Shown: positions 3,340-33,406, counted from the first letter of the stretch. The stretch: DNA of 53,794 nt from a virus (IMGVR_UViG_2740892439_000006:1-53794); one strand, 5' to 3'. Translations and numbers: made by a program. The notes: generated from the letters alone by a model not told the origin.

Positions 3340-3729
3340 TTAAATAACCGGACAATCATCAAACTCCCCACTTCGGGCATCATTGATGACATGAGTGATC
3401 ACACCAAAAACAGCATTACTTCCCGTGCATCCATCGTCATCTACTGGTAACGCCTCTTTCTTCCCGGTGCTTAAATCCTCCAGGTGCTGGCGCGGATACT
3501 TCCTGTATCTCTTTATGCGATATTCACCCTCCATAGCGCACACAAGCAGCGAACCATCAACTGGAGTAAGCGAAGAATCAACCACCAGCAAAGCACCCTG
3601 CAATATTCCCTCACGGTGATGGCTGTCTGCCGCCCGCATGAAGTATGTCGCTGATGGATGCCTGATTAGTTGCTGATCAAGAGAAATTCTGCTTTCAACA
3701 TAATCCGCCGCAGGAGAAGGGAAGCCCAT
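3340..3729 (-). CDS. humD: UmuD-prime homolog HumD
   Basis: GFPSPAADYVE..RI.L.QQLI.HPSATYF matches UmuD after its cleavage site; position upstream of phd-doc as in P1. Confidence 0.85.
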   Translation of the reverse strand: MGFPSPAADYVESRISLDQQLIRHPSATYFMRAADSHHREGILQGALLVVDSSLTPVDGSLLVCAMEGEYRIKRYRKYPRQHLEDLSTGKKEALPVDDDGCTGSNAVFGVITHVINDARSGEFDDCPVI

Positions 3730-3748
3730 AGCGTTTTCACCTCAACAA

Positions 3749-3768
3749 TACTGTTCATTTATACAGTA
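3749..3768. promoter_or_regulatory. LexA (SOS) box upstream of humD
   Basis: TACTGTTCATTTATACAGTA = CTGT-N8-ACAG palindrome 20 bp upstream of humD start. Confidence 0.65.
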
Positions 3769-3903
3769 TACATTAAAGAGACACCTTTGGTGCAAACGCG
3801 TTATGTACATCAACCACCGCAGATGATTTTGTGCGCTTTGCTACTATTCATCACCAACGGATCAGCGTAACCTCGTTGCCAATCAGTTAATAAGGAATTG
3901 GCG

Positions 3904-4827
3904 TTAGCCACGGTTAACCTCCTGCGGCGGTTCTGGTAGAGGCATCCAGTGAGTTACTTTCGATGCCGGTTCTTCCCCATCATCAGTAACTGCCCACCAT
4001 TTGTTTCTCGACCAATCGTAATACCCTTCGAAGGTATCGCACTCAGTCCAGGCGTAAGACTTACCCCAACACCAAACATACTGTTTATCGTTCGGCATTC
4101 GCTCACTACAGCTTATCCAACTATCCGGAGTTGCCGGATAGTTGCCATTCACAAGGTCAGCTCGAACATATAGCGTGTCATCATGGTGTTGATTGTGGCT
4201 GCACCACGTTAATTCGCTTAACTCGCCATCTTCTGGCCATACTCCAGCTGTTTGCAGCCAGATATGGGCTGGCGCATCTTGGCAAGGTGTATTAACTGGA
4301 AACTTGTAAGTTTGGCTTACAGGTTGGCTACCCTGAAGCATGGCAGCGTGGCAGGCATACTCAACGCCCTTAACTGCATCTGCGCAGTAGTTATAGCGAT
4401 TGCATTCCACTAATTTCCGTTTGAGTTTTTCAATTGCCTGCGCGACAACAGCCTGTATTGGCGGAACGGCTGTTTGCTCTCGAACGTCATTAGTCGCTAT
4501 CGGTTCTGCTGCCAACTGACTGGCATATTTGTTAATGGTAACGATAAGCTCTTGCTCGGCCTCATCCAGACAATCACCGATACCTCGCCTGTCACCGTCA
4601 AAATCATCGAAATCGGCACGAATCCTGGCAACCTCCCGGATTGCGGACAACACTTCACCAGGAATAAGCGGAGAGTTGCCCGATAGTACATTCTGCTCCA
4701 GTGATGCCAGAGCAATTCGTGCCAGTTCTTCCGCTTCTTCTGCTGGCAGTACAACGTTGCTACCAGGTCCGTATGTTTCGCGCCACTGCTTGATTGTCAG
4801 CAGTCGCTCTTTGGTAATAGTGGTCAT
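3904..4827 (-). CDS. DUF551-like C-terminal domain phage protein
   Basis: 307 aa; C-terminal WISCSERMP...VTHWMPLPEPP pattern; RBS ggagag upstream. Confidence 0.5.
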   Translation of the reverse strand: MTTITKERLLTIKQWRETYGPGSNVVLPAEEAEELARIALASLEQNVLSGNSPLIPGEVLSAIREVARIRADFDDFDGDRRGIGDCLDEAEQELIVTINKYASQLAAEPIATNDVREQTAVPPIQAVVAQAIEKLKRKLVECNRYNYCADAVKGVEYACHAAMLQGSQPVSQTYKFPVNTPCQDAPAHIWLQTAGVWPEDGELSELTWCSHNQHHDDTLYVRADLVNGNYPATPDSWISCSERMPNDKQYVWCWGKSYAWTECDTFEGYYDWSRNKWWAVTDDGEEPASKVTHWMPLPEPPQEVNRG

Positions 4828-4833
4828 AGTTAG

Positions 4834-5067
4834 TTACTCTCCATAGTCTAATTTAACAAGTCGGCATTTGAGATATCCAAAATTCTCTGGCTTGGCATCT
4901 CTTAAATAAAATTCTTCAGGGAGTTTCCCCCTTATTTTTAATCTGCATAATTCTGTAAAAAACAACCCCCTATGATTTACAGGCTCACAACGCGGCATTA
5001 TCACAAACAACCCAATCCTGCTACCTGATATCACAGGACATAACGCGGCATCGTTAATTGTCGACAT
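4834..5067 (-). CDS. hypothetical small protein
   Basis: 77 aa from MSTINDAAL with RBS caggag; track ORF extends upstream from alternative start. Confidence 0.35.
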   Translation of the reverse strand: MSTINDAALCPVISGSRIGLFVIMPRCEPVNHRGLFFTELCRLKIRGKLPEEFYLRDAKPENFGYLKCRLVKLDYGE

Positions 5068-5268
5068 TTGGCGCTCCTGCAAGTTAGCCAGCAAACCATG
5101 TAAAAATAGTTTCCATGATTTAAATGTTGGAATTTTTATCACGTAATGTCGCAAAACTATTACTACACGCGTTGCACCACGCCGGTTAATATAAGCTCGC
5201 CTGAAGTTTGTCACGGTCTAATCTCCACCCTCTGAATCTGACAGAGTTCGCGGTGTGTTAACGCCATA

Positions 5269-5457
5269 TCACTCTCCTTTAGTGCGCAAGTGGTTTTTCC
5301 AGCGGTTTTGCGCCGCGCTGGGCTTTTTGCAACAACTGTAACTCATCACCCCGCAGCACCCCGTCAACCTCACTCGTCTGTTACTAATCCTCAACCACCT
5401 CCAGACCCCAACACCGTTTCTGCGAGCTAACAGAATTTTTGCCTTACGGTTTTTCAT
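5269..5457 (-). CDS. small basic protein
   Basis: 62 aa; ATGA overlap with upstream small ORF. Confidence 0.25.
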   Translation of the reverse strand: MKNRKAKILLARRNGVGVWRWLRISNRRVRLTGCCGVMSYSCCKKPSAAQNRWKNHLRTKGE

Positions 5458-28409: not shown

Positions 28410-30071
28410 TTAACCTAACTTCGCCCAGGTATCACGCAGCCCAACGGTGCGGTTAAATACCGGTTTTTCCGCCGTGGAATGGCGGCTGTCGAGGCAGAAA
28501 TAACCTTCACGCTCAAACTGGAATGCTTTACCCGCTACCGCGTCTTTCAGCGACGGTTCAGCAAAACCCTGTTTGATCACCAGCGATTCCGGGTTAATCA
28601 CCGACAGGAAATCATCCGCAGCACCTGGGTTCGGCACGCTGAACAGACGATCGTACAGGCGGATTTCAACCGGCAGCGCATGTGCCGCGCTCACCCAGTG
28701 AATAACGCCTTTCACTTTACGACCATCTGCCGGATCTTTGCTTAAGGTGTCGGCGTCATAAGTACAGAAGATGGTGGTGATATTGCCTTCGGCATCTTTC
28801 TCCACGCGTTCAGCCTTAATGACGTAAGCATTACGCAGACGCACTTCTTTACCCAGCACCAGACGTTTGTACTGCTTGTTAGCTTCTTCGCGGAAATCGG
28901 CGCGGTCGATCCAAATCTCACCGCTAAACGGCACCTGACGGCTACCCATTTCCGGTTTGTTTGGATGGTTCGGCATGGTGACCATTTCGCCTTCGCCCTG
29001 GTAGTTTTCGATAACCAGTTTCACCGGATCGATAACCGCCATTGCGCGCGGGGCATTTTCGTTGAGATCTTCACGGATGCAGGATTCCAGCGACGCCATT
29101 TCAATGGTGTTGTCCTGCTTGGTCACGCCGATGCGTTTGCAGAACTCACGAATAGAAGCCGCAGTGTAACCACGACGACGCAGACCGGAAATGGTCGGCA
29201 TACGCGGGTCATCCCAGCCTTCAACGTGCTTGTCGGTCACCAGCAGGTTCAGCTTACGCTTGGACATCACAGTGTATTCCAGATTCAGGCGCGAGAATTC
29301 GTACTGGCGCGGGTGAACAGGAATGGTGATGTTGTCCAGTACCCAGTCATACAGACGACGGTTGTCCTGGAACTCAAGCGTACACAGAGAGTGCGTAATA
29401 CCTTCCAGCGCATCGCTGATGCAGTGGGTAAAGTCGTACATCGGGTAGATGCACCACTTGTTACCAGTCTGGTGGTGTTCAGCAAATTTAATGCGGTACA
29501 GCACCGGATCGCGCATTACGATAAATGGCGACGCCATGTCGATTTTCGCACGCAGGCAGGCTTTACCTTCTTCAAAACCACCGGCACGCATTTTTTCGAA
29601 CAGCGCCAGGTTCTCTTCAACGCTGCGGTCGCGGTACGGGCTGTTTTTACCCGGCTGCGTCAGGGTGCCACGATATTCGCGGATCTGTTCCGGCGTCAGT
29701 TCATCAACGTACGCCAGGCCTTTATTGATCAGTTCAACAGCATAGGCATGGAGTTTGTCAAAATAATCGGAGGAGTAACGGATGTTGCCAGACCAGTGAA
29801 AACCTAACCATTCAACGTCGTTTTTAATCGACTCGACGTACTCGATATCTTCTTTTACCGGGTTAGTGTCGTCGAAACGCAGGTTGCACTGGCCTTTATA
29901 GTCCTGGGCGATCCCGAAGTTCAGGCAGATAGATTTCGCATGACCAATATGCAGATAGCCATTCGGTTCCGGCGGGAAACGGGTATGTACTGTGGTGTGC
30001 TTACCACTGGCCAGATCTTCATCGATGATCTGACGAATAAAGTTAGTCGGGCGGGCTTCTGCCTCACTCAT
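28410..30071 (-). CDS. glnS: glutaminyl-tRNA synthetase
   Basis: 553 aa; N-terminus [24 protein letters not shown] and HIGH-type motif region match E. coli GlnS as recalled; extreme C-terminus reads ...DTWAKLG. Confidence 0.95.
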
Positions 30072-30260
30072 TGTGGATTCCTCAAAGCGTAAACAACGTA
30101 TAACAGCGTATGATCTTATAAGCCGAATAGGCTGACAACCACTAGTTGATTAGAAATTGCTTTCTATCGTTATTTCAATAATGAGCTTTTTCATGAAGCC
30201 CACTTTTGCGCATAAGTAAATTAATGACAAATGGTACACAATTGGAACCAAAAAGGATGT

Positions 30261-30298
30261 AAAGGTGCACCAAATTAGTGGTGTATTGGTGCACCTTT
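30261..30298. promoter_or_regulatory. 12-bp perfect inverted repeat between glnS upstream region and partition operon
   Basis: aaaggtgcacca-N14-tggtgcaccttt; no adjacent T-run, so operator rather than clean terminator. Confidence 0.4.
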
Positions 30299-30339
30299 GG
30301 TTCAAGACTTTTTAAGTTCTAAAACCAACCTGAAAGACT

Positions 30340-30627
30340 TTATTTTGCTTCCTCAGACTCCGCTAACATGAGGATAGCATGGCGGATCATATTCAATTTG
30401 CTGCGATTATGCTTTTTACTTAACGCATCAAGTACTTGGTACTCGTATTCATTGAAACCAACACGAATAGATTTAAAATCACGTGGAGCGTCCTTATCGA
30501 GCACTTTGTTGTCTTCTGGTTGCTCACCCGGCACCAAATCAGCCTTACTGGCAAAATCCTCAATTCGGCGTTCAAGATCGGGGTCTTTTACTTCGGGGGC
30601 TTTTACCGATTTACGAGGCTTAATCAC
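30340..30627 (-). CDS. partition RHH protein (ParG-like)
   Basis: 95 aa; downstream of and overlapping small ParA; C-terminal MIRHAILMLAESEE ribbon-helix-helix-like. Confidence 0.5.
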   Translation of the reverse strand: MIKPRKSVKAPEVKDPDLERRIEDFASKADLVPGEQPEDNKVLDKDAPRDFKSIRVGFNEYEYQVLDALSKKHNRSKLNMIRHAILMLAESEEAK

Positions 30628-31261
30628 TTAATAACTCCTTAACCAACATCTGGATTTCACCTTTAGCTTTCCCGTTGTCCATCTCAACAACGCCCTTCCC
30701 TTCAGCCATGCAATCGCGGTAAACCTTACGATCACGAATGATGGTTTTCAGCAACTTCAGTTGCGGATATTCAGCCAGGTACTCTTTGGCCTCATTGGTT
30801 TCATTCACAACCGGATTGGATGGGGCCATTGTTAAGACTGCGAACGCCTTAATGCTAGGATTAGGCATCAGGTCCAAAGCCTCTTCAAACACTTCAACAA
30901 AGTGTGCCAGCGTGTCTAAATCTGGTTGAGATGGTCTGAATGGGACCAACACAATATCTGCAGCGGTTATGCCTGTACGCATCTCTTTGCTATCGCGCCC
31001 GGCTGTATCAACAACTACAAATTCATAACGCTTATCCAGATCGAGAAGTGTTTCTCGAATATTACCAAACTTCTGGACACAATGAATTACAGGAGAAACC
31101 TCTGCCGTGTTACGGTCAGCTGCCCAGCGGGCAGCTGTTCCTTGCTTGTCTGCATCTAGTAACACTACATCCTTATTTGCGCGGGCAAGCTCCGCACAGA
31201 TGTTTACGCTTGTGGTTGATTTTCCACAGCCACCTTTTTGGCTGACTACCAATATAATCAT
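30620..31261 (-). CDS. parA: small ParA-type partition ATPase (type Ib)
   Basis: Deviant Walker A VVSQKGGCGKST; start at MIILVV with RBS gagg. Confidence 0.7.
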   Translation of the reverse strand: MIILVVSQKGGCGKSTTSVNICAELARANKDVVLLDADKQGTAARWAADRNTAEVSPVIHCVQKFGNIRETLLDLDKRYEFVVVDTAGRDSKEMRTGITAADIVLVPFRPSQPDLDTLAHFVEVFEEALDLMPNPSIKAFAVLTMAPSNPVVNETNEAKEYLAEYPQLKLLKTIIRDRKVYRDCMAEGKGVVEMDNGKAKGEIQMLVKELLSD

Positions 31262-31504
31262 ATCCGTTCCTCGGTGTGATTTTGGTATCAAAACGGTTCC
31301 AGATAAGAGCCTTTTTGATGCGGGACAGGCTCTATAATGGAGTCATTAATGTTTGGCAAAGTATAACATCAATCAGACCAAATACACCTTATATTGCATC
31401 CTATTTAACACGAAATCAGCCCAAAATTGGAACCAGATACAAAATAACCCCATAACAGCACCTAAGTGGTACCAAACAAACACTAATTAGACACCATTAA
31501 GGCA

Positions 31505-31535
31505 TAAAAAAGGCTGCAATTTGCAGCCTTAAACC
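31505..31535 (-). terminator. rho-independent terminator after parR
   Basis: stem aggctgca/tgcagcct with A-run on plus strand (T-run on minus). Confidence 0.5.
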
Positions 31536-31548
31536 AGCACATCTTCTG

Positions 31549-31893
31549 TCAATCAGGTAGAGAGTCAGCTAGATTGCGCGCCGACGCGCTTTTGGCTACA
31601 AATTGCTCCTTCACTGGCTCAATGGAGGCAGGGCGCTCCTCAACCGCAGCTGGTAGTTCCAGGAAGGATGCCAGCATTTTTCGGATCAGCTCCGGGTTAT
31701 TGTCTTCGGTCAGCAGGGAAGCCAGTAATCCTGGAAGCCTGCTATCGACTTCTCCCAGCGCAAGCCCTGCCAACAATGCAGTTCTTGCCATATCGCTATG
31801 TTTTTTTATCTTCTCGCTCGCCGCCTTTTCATTGGCATAAGCCTCTGGGCGAAGATAAATCATCACTTTCTTACGTTCCTGAGACATGGACAT
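31549..31893 (-). CDS. parR: ParR-like centromere-binding protein
   Basis: 114 aa immediately downstream of parM; RTALLAGLAL resembles R1 ParR as recalled. Confidence 0.6.
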   Translation of the reverse strand: MSMSQERKKVMIYLRPEAYANEKAASEKIKKHSDMARTALLAGLALGEVDSRLPGLLASLLTEDNNPELIRKMLASFLELPAAVEERPASIEPVKEQFVAKSASARNLADSLPD

Positions 31894-31899
31894 ACCTCG

Positions 31900-32879
31900 T
31901 TAACCGATTGCTTTCAGGCCATGAACAAGAGCAAGTTGCGGGTCATCCGCCACGAAGAAACGGTCATCACGAATATTAACTTGCACGCGAATTGCATCTG
32001 CCACCAGCGGTGCGCCACCACCGATCACCATGACATGCGTATATCCTTTAAAGTCGCCAATCACATCAAGAACGCGGGTACGCAGACGGTCAATGCTTGC
32101 GGCAATGGCCTTTTTCACATCACCAATCGCTGATGGGTCATTGATATTGTCGTTCAGATAATCTTCATCGTGGCGGTTAATAATGAGCTGATCCACATTG
32201 TAATTTGACGTTTCGGTATTGGCCCTTGCAAGTGCTTGCCTTACTTCCCTGGTGACCAGTGATACACCAAGATTCGAATCGCCAAAAACACGGGAAACTG
32301 CCGTCATTTGTCCAGCGACCATTGAAACATCAAGGTAGTTCCACCCAAATCGACGATAAGAACAGAGTGGGCAGGGTTCAGATTGTCGCACAGGCTAATT
32401 CCCGCCGGGATAGACTCCGGGCGTACCGTAACTTTCTTAATAGTGAATACATTGCCTTTATTCAGCGTGACGGGGCGCATAAGACTGGCTTTCTTGCGCT
32501 CGATGTTATCGAGATTGTATTGCGCGTCGTCGTCGTAAAACTCTGCCAGAGGCAGCGTGACCACAATTTCTACTTCCTGCGGCTCAATACCGCTTGTCAG
32601 CAGGGCATGGTGAACAGCCAGGACGTTAAGCGGGCTGTATTGCCATTCCACATTATTCGTCGGCAGAACATCTGGCGATATCAAGTCGTATGAATACTTT
32701 TCGTCGTCAATGACATAGTTAAACGGCTTGCCCGCACCAAATGTTGCTGACCATCCGCGCTTAAAGCTGTTAGGGCTGATGTGAGTGCGAGTTTCCCCGT
32801 CGTGCTCCCACAGCATTTTGATATTGGTTGAACCATCATCGATAAAAATGCGCATCTTCTTGCTCCACTTCTGAGACAC
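31900..32879 (-). pseudogene. parM: ParM (StbA) actin-like segregation ATPase, frame broken after DLGGTTL
   Basis: Two ORFs (32304..32879 and 31900..32391) each match R1 ParM halves ([11 protein letters not shown]; GYTHVMVIGGGA); frame restored by ttgatg->ttggatg. Confidence 0.75.
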
Positions 32880-33060
32880 ATTTGAGAATCAAAATGTAAT
32901 TTTAAAAGAGAAGCACCCAAAAATCCACACCAAACGAGATAAAAAAGAGCGCTTGTTGAGTTTATTTTGAGAATATCTTAATCACCCACTGAATGATGGT
33001 CTGATGGTGAGATTTATTTGAGAATGAATTGAGAATACAAAAATATTCCGAAATTTAACT
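32880..33060. repeat. parC-like centromere region with direct TTGAGAAT repeats
   Basis: At least five ttgagaat copies upstream of parM. Confidence 0.45.
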
Positions 33061-33121
33061 CTCCGTTTGAATGACGAAATAACAAAGTGATGACAATAGG
33101 AGGATAACCAGGAGGTGAAGA

Positions 33122-33406
33122 ATGAGCGCAATAGCCACCAGCGACACCCTTTGTTCTGGTCACGGAGGATTTCCGCCGCGACTGGTAGCTGAAACCGTTC
33201 CCTGGTTCACCGTTAACGGTAAGCCAGTTGTTGTAGATGGTGCCATGTTTCCCAGTCACACTGACGGTAACAGTGCACATCCAGGGGCAGCTGTATCGAC
33301 GCGAGTATGGTTTTCGATAGGTGGAAAGGGAGTTGTCTGTGTAGGCGATCCGCTTTCTTGTGGTTCTGTTATCGCCAACGGCGAGGATATTTTTCAGGTT
33401 GCATAA
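33122..33406 (+). CDS. PAAR-like spike-tip protein (tentative)
   Basis: 94 aa, Gly-rich, GKGVVCVGDPLSCGSVIANGED motif; RBS aggagg. Confidence 0.4.
   Translation: MSAIATSDTLCSGHGGFPPRLVAETVPWFTVNGKPVVVDGAMFPSHTDGNSAHPGAAVSTRVWFSIGGKGVVCVGDPLSCGSVIANGEDIFQVA

Follow-up and report, generated by a model that had tools for sequence, protein, structure and literature searches.

Plasmids that carry two partition systems of different types have been described several times. In pB171, a type I locus adjoins a type II locus, and dual systems are functional in the Shigella plasmid pINV (PMC6519299) as well as in R27 (as cited in PMC13245405). In a survey of PLSDB, about 19% of the plasmids with a recognizable partition system carried more than one (PMC13245405). 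Here, we describe a locus of this kind in the viral DNA stretch IMGVR_UViG_2740892439_000006, which was analyzed over its whole length of 53,794 nucleotides (nt) and is referred to below as the window. An original prediction, made by a model from the sequence alone, had noted two partition systems of different types side by side at positions 30255 to 33060, namely, a small deviant-Walker ParA with a 95-amino-acid (aa) ribbon-helix-helix (RHH) partner and a ParM/ParR module. The two systems do adjoin, and their gene identities are those of a type II ParMRC system and a type Ib ParA/RHH system. The pairing as such is not unusual: 971 PLSDB accessions combine a type I RHH-ParB system with a type II system (PMC13245405).

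It is highly probable that the window carries two complete, independent partition cassettes, one of type II and one of type Ib, which stand in tandem on the minus strand with a terminator between them. Along that strand the order is parC-like iterons, parM, parR, terminator, box arrays, parA, orf61, hairpin, and glnS (Table 1). What we observed in support of this are the identities of the genes, the RHH fold of the orf61 product, the clustering, conservation, and 11-bp spacing of the repeats, the terminators, and purifying selection on the genes. The locus is an uncharacterized yet ordinary case of known kinds; conceptually it holds nothing new, and the pairing of types is common.

The par loci of pB171, a type II ParMRC system (par1) and a type Ib system (par2), are transcribed divergently. 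They share a single regulatory region (PMC6519299), whereas the cassettes in the window run in tandem on one strand with a terminator between them. We did not find a shared central regulatory region of the pB171 type in the window: the parC-like region lies upstream of parM, and the terminator at 31510 to 31530 precedes the parA box arrays. In both cases a type II locus adjoins a type Ib locus, the ParR proteins are related (2jd3, E = 1e-6), and a small ParA is accompanied by a small partner of the RHH type. The par2 locus has one centromere upstream (parC1) and one downstream (parC2) of its genes (PMC4270457), and the candidate sites in the window likewise lie on both sides. pB171 is a virulence plasmid of Escherichia coli, whereas the host of the window locus is a phage-plasmid.

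By its sequence matches, the window is a stretch of a D6-like, P1-related phage-plasmid. Positions 30000 to 33200 have an identity of 99.1% with Escherichia phage D6 (MF356679) and of 99.9% with the E. coli plasmid pUTAK-19-1 (CP157128), a phage-plasmid. The same segment matches 135 plasmid records, mostly of about 90 kb, from Escherichia, Salmonella, and Shigella hosts, and 133 of these records are typed as non-mobilizable. Among 5,426 complete E. coli genomes, 83 (about 1.5%) contain D6-like phage-plasmids, which are also found in Salmonella. In the annotation of D6, orf58 and orf59 are plasmid stability proteins of the StbA and StbB types, orf60 has a “possible ParA partitioning function,” orf61 is hypothetical, and orf62 is glutaminyl-tRNA synthetase; for the D6-like plasmid pYU39_89, a re-annotation uses the names cop, parA, stbB, and parM for the genes of partition (PMC6799933). 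The gene content of the locus is therefore already on record; D6 and pYU39_89 carry the same locus, from which the window copy differs by a frameshifted parM. In the inspected records of relatives, no centromere, operator, or terminator feature is annotated, and orf61 is a “hypothetical protein.” Our analysis adds the RHH assignment of orf61, the 11-bp box arrays, the two terminators, and a warning about frameshift errors in the source sequence. Accordingly named, orf61 would be the RHH centromere-binding partner of D6-type ParA, and both terminators, like the candidate centromere/operator boxes, can be added to the annotation. Knowledge of the maintenance modules of D6-like phage-plasmids helps to predict incompatibility and stability.

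In the type II cassette, the intact ParM of D6 and CP157128 matches PF06406 (StbA_N, E = 9e-70) and PF21523 (ParM C-terminal domain, E = 2e-54) and aligns end to end with R1 ParM (E = 1e-111), with the DLGGTTLD motif kept. The parR open reading frame (ORF), of 112 to 114 aa depending on the start, begins 7 to 13 nt past the parM stop, and its product matches PF10784 (E = 3e-11). The TTGAGAAT repeats that had been called parC-like hold up well upstream of parM: four of the seven copies in the window fall within 32882 to 33036, at conserved positions, and two core spacings are exactly 11 bp. On the coding (minus) strand the iteron boxes read (A/T)TTCTCAAAT, with TCTCA cores at -178, -167, -156, -116, -31, and -20 from the parM ATG. 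These cores include one triplet and one pair, each spaced at exactly 11 bp, and degenerate nnnCTCnnnnn units share their register.

For conservation we used an alignment of eight loci, in which the diverged D6-like loci have a ParA operon 78 to 95% identical to that of the window. Handles beginning with L denote these and other compared records; L005 (NZ_AP027678), L006 (NZ_CP056699, an Escherichia marmotae element), and L010 (NZ_CP122510) are all D6-like plasmids. Of the seven relatives compared, six retain the TCTCA core positions, and the most diverged, L006, retains only part of them; the sequence flanking the cores is diverged in L006, L007, and L010. The block ttttaaaat is kept in all eight loci and contains TAAAAT, a putative promoter element of parMR whose -35 is weak. 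The layout of the parC-like region is as expected for a putative ParR-bound centromere/operator. Thus, the cassette has the components of a ParMRC system: a ParM ATPase, an adjacent downstream ParR gene, and upstream iterons around a predicted promoter.

As in the ParMRC (StbAB) systems of R1 and R100, the window iterons are 11 bp apart upstream of parM and lie around a -10-like element. The R1 parC has 10 iterons; the window has fewer that are recognizable, about six strong ones plus degenerate units. When D6 ParR was used in a tblastn search with an E cut-off of 1e-3, the matches listed were D6-like sequences (57 to 100% identity), followed by Providencia, Proteus, and others at about 40%, and no R1/R100-type (IncF) record was among them.

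Directly after parR lies a predicted intrinsic terminator, kept in all eight loci with variation confined to the loop. The parR stop and the parA start are just 287 nt apart, and the terminator in this interval indicates, from its sequence, that the two cassettes are separate operons.

The ParA of the second cassette bears out the description of a small deviant-Walker ATPase. It has the deviant Walker A motif SQKGGCGKST at residues 7 to 16, no N-terminal helix-turn-helix domain, and Pfam matches to AAA_31, CbiA, and MipZ. Along its entire length it can be aligned with TP228 ParF (4dzz and 5u1g, E = 1e-18), from which it is clearly diverged, and its closest NCBIfam model is NF041546 (ParA_partition), matched over model positions 1 to 203 of 203. 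Homologues of parA were found in at least 5,000 plasmid records.

The N-terminus of the orf61 product is basic (MIKPRK), and the protein has a helix at residues 16 to 29 and a predicted C-terminal RHH at about residues 50 to 92. A word-indexed homology search with orf61 reached only relatives at 76% identity or above, and an exhaustive phmmer search returned 101 relatives of 55 to 130 aa. The family consensus is K-x-I-x-V-P-F-N-E-Y-E-Y ... G-R-S-K-L-N-x-I-R-x-A-I, preceded by an N-terminal MxKxR and a conserved IExFAxxAD helix. When 84 aligned members (the query and 83 relatives) were scanned, 24 matched NikA-like and 15 matched RHH_1, with further matches to TraY (5), RHH_7, TacA1, and RHH_5; all of the families matched are RHH families. 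Nearly all of the best PDB matches of the family profile are RHH proteins of the CopG family (E = 0.2 to 0.7). The AlphaFold model (predicted local distance difference test [pLDDT] score, 89) shows the helix at 16 to 29, an extended segment at about 50 to 59, and helices at 60 to 72 and 77 to 92. Foldseek placed CopA, CopG, ParG, TacA1, and Arc at the top of a list made up almost entirely of RHH proteins, with root mean square deviations of 1.2 to 1.9 Å over about 42 residues and target-normalized template modeling scores mostly of 0.7 to 0.83 for the compact RHH matches. The RHH partner proposed earlier is therefore supported at the level of the fold by the Pfam matches of its relatives, the model, and the structural matches, and we regard the predicted RHH fold as confirmed.

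Like orf61, TP228 ParG (1p94) has a flexible or helical N-terminal part and a C-terminal RHH, and it is among the top fold matches, ranking fifth with a Foldseek probability of 0.57. This likeness is at the fold level only. Pfam, phmmer, and the family profile against PDB gave no sequence similarity between orf61 and ParG, and orf61 is not a member of the ParG family at the sequence level.

The original prediction suggested that repeated GGAACCA-containing motifs may form the centromere or operator of the ParA system. The exact word stands at only two of the four places cited (30244 and 31429) and shows no enrichment over the window (8 occurrences, with 5.7 expected, 2 of the 8 lying in the region). 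The sites at 31294 and 31467 are the variants CGGTTCCA and TGGTACCA. All four cited sites (30243, 31294, 31428, and 31467) are instances of a looser box, TGGTRY, often TGGNNCCA; as candidates for a centromere or operator, such boxes are plausible on account of their enrichment in the flanks of the operon, their 11-bp spacing, and their recurrence in distant operons. Over the whole window TGGNNCCA is not enriched (11 copies against 13.6 expected), and 5 of the 11 copies are clustered within the 1.2 kb from 30243 to 31474. In a scan of both strands of the 53.8 kb for TGGTRY, the densest 250-nt intervals were 30191 to 30480 and 31251 to 31530, which coincide exactly with the flanks of parA-orf61 on either side. 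Counted over the eight loci, each upstream region of about 285 nt has 4 to 8 boxes, compared to about 0.6 expected by chance, 0 to 3 in the 920 nt of coding sequence, and 2 to 4 within about 110 nt downstream. In de novo k-mer counts upstream of parA in the diverged loci, the most enriched words were relatives of GGAAC, with GGTAC six times in both L007 and L008 (p about 3e-7) and TGGTGC four times in L010.

In the close relatives of the window, boxes on the coding strand upstream of parA lie at -235, -224, -213, -202, and -191 and at -174, -163, and -152, with others at -128 and -119, beside the -10, and at -40 and -29. The box groups are each in an 11-bp register, and the diverged group has boxes at equivalent positions. 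At -176, -165, and -154, the counterparts of the second array, L007 has an exact TGGTRC at all three; in L008 and L010 the boxes at the first two are exact, and that at -154 has one mismatch. The box at -40 is kept in all eight loci, and that at -29 is missing in L008 and L010. The boxes AGGTGTA and TGGTCT (31375 to 31389) overlie the -35 position of the putative parA promoter and are a likely operator. Downstream of the operon, the box cluster persists in L005, L006, and L010, where the downstream sequence is non-homologous. Tandem Repeats Finder missed both iteron arrays of the locus, which are too degenerate.

Taken together with the genes, the TGGTRY/TGGNNCCA boxes are a likely centromere/operator of the ParA system, and the cassette appears to have the makeup of type Ib, with a small deviant-Walker ParA, a downstream RHH gene, and adjoining short-repeat arrays. 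The parH site of TP228, upstream of the ATPase gene, is an array of short, degenerate boxes separated by AT-rich spacers (PMC3130281), and the window array is built likewise. Unlike those of TP228, the window boxes are TGGTRY hexamers or TGGNNCCA palindromes 11 bp apart, and there are possible extra sites downstream.

By homology with ParMRC of R1 and pB171, ParFG of TP228, and par2 of pB171, we would expect DNA binding, autoregulation, and segregation activity to proceed as follows. ParR would bind the TTCTCAAAT iterons upstream of parM and so repress the promoter that lies between them; complexes of ParR with DNA would then capture the ends of ATP-ParM filaments, and the growing filaments would push sister plasmids apart. 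Dimers of the RHH protein would bind the TGGTRY/TGGNNCCA arrays upstream of parA, including those over the promoter and probably also those downstream, forming the partition complex and repressing the parA operon. By analogy with ParG, the basic N-terminal tail of the orf61 product may stimulate the ATPase of nucleoid-bound ParA, which would space plasmids evenly over the nucleoid. The inverted repeat with 13-nt arms behind orf61 would act mainly as the RNA terminator hairpin of this operon.

Table 1. Coordinates of the tandem partition locus and its neighbors, counted from the first nucleotide of the window
Feature	Position	Strand	Remarks
glnS	28410-30071	minus	
Downstream box cluster	30231-30304		TGGTAC, TGGAACCA, GGTGCACCAA, TGGTGT, TTGGTGCACC, TGGTTC; overlaps inverted repeat
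orf61, candidate centromere-binding protein, 95 aa	30340-30627	minus	Overlaps parA stop by 8 nt
parA, type Ib partition ATPase, 213 aa	30620-31261	minus	Deviant Walker A; no N-terminal DNA-binding domain
Proximal boxes TGGAACC (-40) and TGATAC (-29)	31285-31301	minus	Just upstream of parA ribosome-binding site
Putative parA promoter	31360-31389	minus	Extended -10 TGTTATACT at 31360-31368, invariant in 8/8 loci
Second box array	31403-31435	minus	Three units (-174/-163/-152) in 11-bp register; includes TGGTTCC
Distal box array	31442-31496	minus	11-bp units TGGTGTCTAAT, TAGTGTTTGTT, TGGTACCACTT, AGGTGCTGTTA, TGGGGTTATTT; includes TGGTACCA
Predicted intrinsic terminator of parMR operon	31510-31530	minus	AAGGCTGCAA-A-TTGCAGCCTT, then TTTTTAT
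parR (stbB), centromere-binding adaptor	31549-31893	minus	D6 start 6 nt further in, at 31887
parM (stbA), actin-like segregation ATPase	31900-32856	minus	318 aa, intact in D6 and CP157128
parC-like iteron region of type II system	32872-33040	minus	Basis: repeat counts and conserved positions
TAAAAT, -10-like hexamer, putative parMR promoter element	32899-32904	minus	Between distal and proximal iteron groups
PAAR-domain gene (P1 upfC-like)	33122-33406	plus	Divergent from parM

Several observations weigh against two complete cassettes. In the window as given, parM is disrupted: a 1-nt deletion near 32333 to 32335 (on the coding strand, CC where D6 and CP157128 have CCC) splits it into ORFs at 32304 to 32879 and 31900 to 32391. 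The deletion falls in the catalytic DLGGTTLD region, at the motif that aligns with the R1 ParM motif containing D170. The original prediction was right about the identity of the ParM module and overlooked this split. Further 1-nt deletions affect dut, an isaA-like gene, a pmgC-like gene, sit, and a baseplate gene (two deletions), while the capsid gene and glnS are intact in the window. Since same-type deletions split several other window genes, we consider the parM frameshift most likely to be a sequencing or assembly error; for the same reason, we rejected the idea that it signals redundancy between the two systems. The parM deletion is absent from all 83 complete E. coli genomes that carry the segment.

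Relative to CP157128, single-base deletions lie at 794, 2095, 14721, 22046, 32335, 35912, 42087, 48751, 49924, and 50223. Those of the window occur in short homopolymer or dinucleotide runs. As a set, the window deletions suggest either that the source sequence contains errors of sequencing or assembly or that it is a decaying prophage.

Also to be counted against two complete cassettes is that ParA, at 162.6 bits, misses the equivalog cut-off of NF041546 (180 bits). On its own, orf61 has no Pfam, NCBIfam, or PDB sequence match, apart from a faint RelB-like one (E = 0.055), and the profile and fold matches to RHH proteins are weak (E = 0.1 to 0.7), which we attribute to the small size of the domain. 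A consensus promoter scan picked up neither operon's promoter, so both promoter assignments rest on conservation. The upstream boxes of the window itself are degenerate, with four exact TGGTRY, and the box motif was refined after these regions had been viewed, which introduces some circularity.

Distant homologous operons provide the most independent check on the motif. Those of Rahnella pRAHAQ02, Arsenophonus paApi_AU1, and Aeromonas pAsa5 match parA at about 66 to 68% nucleotide identity, and their partner genes are clearly orf61 homologues. All three operons adjoin TTGGTACCAA-type palindromes or TGGTRC boxes, and those of Rahnella and Aeromonas adjoin a replication initiator gene. In Aeromonas salmonicida pAsa5 (L017), a perfect 28-bp palindrome, GGAACCTTTTTGGTACCAAAAAGGTTCC, lies at about 2171 to 2198, roughly 100 nt upstream of the distant parA-RHH homologue and beside repA.

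Other explanations of the locus center on the sequence downstream of orf61, on the function of the ParA-RHH pair, and on the history of the two cassettes. The “perfect 12-bp palindrome” of the original prediction is indeed a perfect inverted repeat, but its arms are 13 nt long (30261 to 30273 and 30286 to 30298) and are separated by 12 nt. It begins 42 nt past the orf61 stop, has a T-rich tract after the stem, and folds as RNA with -31 kcal/mol (z = -3.1); Rfam gave a chance match to a miRNA hairpin only. If this repeat were the centromere of the ParA system, acting as a DNA palindrome, the boxes elsewhere would be chance occurrences or mere operators. Each arm does hold TGGTGC/GCACCA boxes and the 8-bp palindrome GGTGCACC; Arsenophonus has a similar repeat, GCACCAGT-N6-ACTGGTGC, downstream of its operon, the Aeromonas palindrome centered on TTGGTACCAA lies upstream of parA, and pB171 par2 has its downstream centromere parC2 (PMC4270457). 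In L007, however, one of the four variants in the glnS context, three stem pairs are changed with compensation and the arms are without TGGTGC, and in L003 and L008 one-sided C-to-T changes yield G-U pairs, which preserve an RNA helix and not a DNA palindrome. These compensatory and G-U changes fit an RNA helix better than a protein-bound DNA palindrome. The segment is also absent from L005, L006, and L010, which lack glnS, keep the operon, and nevertheless have boxes just past the stop codon. A palindromic centromere therefore seems unlikely to us, and a terminator hairpin in the RNA, at the 3' end of the parA operon, is the likelier reading of the repeat. Its arms contain boxes, so protein could still bind there, and the boxes around the hairpin are possibly a second, parC2-like site, as in pB171 par2 (PMC4270457). 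The ParA-RHH pair might alternatively be a VirC1/VirC2-like or NikA-like DNA-processing accessory or a Cop regulator. ParA matches VirC1 models (PF07015, E = 3e-12; PRK13849), NikA-like and TraY matches occur among the RHH relatives (24 and 5 of the 84 scanned, respectively), and one gene of the set was called “cop” in the re-annotation (PMC6799933). RHH families generally cross-match one another, though, and the best full-length matches of ParA are the partition protein ParF and the ParA_partition model. MOB-suite types D6-like elements as non-mobilizable, and no relaxase was noticed in the D6 annotation. The Rahnella and Aeromonas homologues stand beside replication initiator genes, which is the classic rep-par layout. 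We regard a function other than partition as very improbable.

The presence of two systems had also been read as the mark of a cointegrate or of a replacement, which, if recent, would have left one system as a decaying remnant, with the frameshifted parM as the candidate. Besides the split parM, the very unequal synonymous divergence of the two cassettes within the same pairs of elements speaks for such a history. Between L002 and L008, parM has a dS (synonymous divergence) of 0.13 and parA is saturated; between L002 and L006, parM has a dS of 3.1, ParR is 57% identical, and parA has a dS of 0.36. We take this contrast to mean that the cassettes have been exchanged independently by recombination, which could reset incompatibility. 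Against a cointegrate or replacement, the order parM-parR-parA-orf61 is the same in all seven annotated D6-like elements fetched, both with glnS (D6, L003, L007, and L008) and without it (L005, L006, and L010); L004 and L009 have no usable annotation and are outside this count. The one replicon type in each of the nine D6-like plasmid records that were fetched is rep_cluster_1704, and two replication modules, each with its own par locus, as a cointegrate would have, were not found in these records. In D6, the lytic repL is accompanied by one Rep_3-type gene (orf42), which lies about 10.5 kb away from the par genes, and no other par genes are listed in the annotation. The ratio of nonsynonymous to synonymous divergence (dN/dS) is 0.01 to 0.29 for parM, parR, parA, and orf61 where computable and at most 0.15 in appreciably diverged pairs, with some of the pairs having a dS above 1. 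Such low values speak of strong purifying selection, by which both systems are maintained, with no sign of decay in the lineage, and the parM deletion, found in none of the 83 E. coli genomes and accompanied by same-type deletions that point to errors, is poor material for a remnant. A cointegrate or replacement origin is thus very unlikely, and we favor two intact cassettes that are kept together. The original prediction was largely right in what it observed and partly right in how it interpreted it.

In L006, positions 3706 to 5300 (corresponding to window positions 31549 to 33121) hold a different type II allele, with a ParR of 121 aa and a rearranged parC region.

The two systems had been described as flanking the glnS upstream region, but both lie on one side of it, and only the 3' end of the parA operon abuts glnS. 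The first 88 nt or so upstream of glnS (30073 to 30159) are 88 to 90% identical to enterobacterial chromosome-like records, from which it seems that glnS was captured along with a leader or promoter of its own. At 30138 to 30110 on the minus strand stands a promoter-like TTGTCA-17-GATCAT. In L005, L006, and L010, which are without glnS, the stop codon of orf61 is the exact point at which homology to the window ends; downstream there is a long Dam-family methylase gene in L006 and a gene for a hypothetical protein in L005 and L010. Because glnS is missing in some D6-like elements, it appears to be a variable cargo module inserted beside the par genes.

The downstream box cluster sits on the terminator hairpin, 160 to 230 nt upstream of glnS. 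We can speculate that the RHH protein and its boxes serve purposes beyond partition, making glnS expression or read-through depend on how much partition protein is present, or that the cassettes are specialized by host, temperature, or co-resident plasmid; we think either rather improbable. If true, this would explain why both cassettes are kept despite independent recombination.

A 51-aa ORF at 30150 to 30305 on the minus strand overlaps the hairpin and the downstream boxes. It has no Pfam match, is unannotated in relatives, and is probably spurious. At the other end of the locus, the PAAR-domain gene and parM share a 265-bp intergenic region that holds the parC-like iterons, and binding of ParR to these iterons might also influence expression of the PAAR-domain gene.

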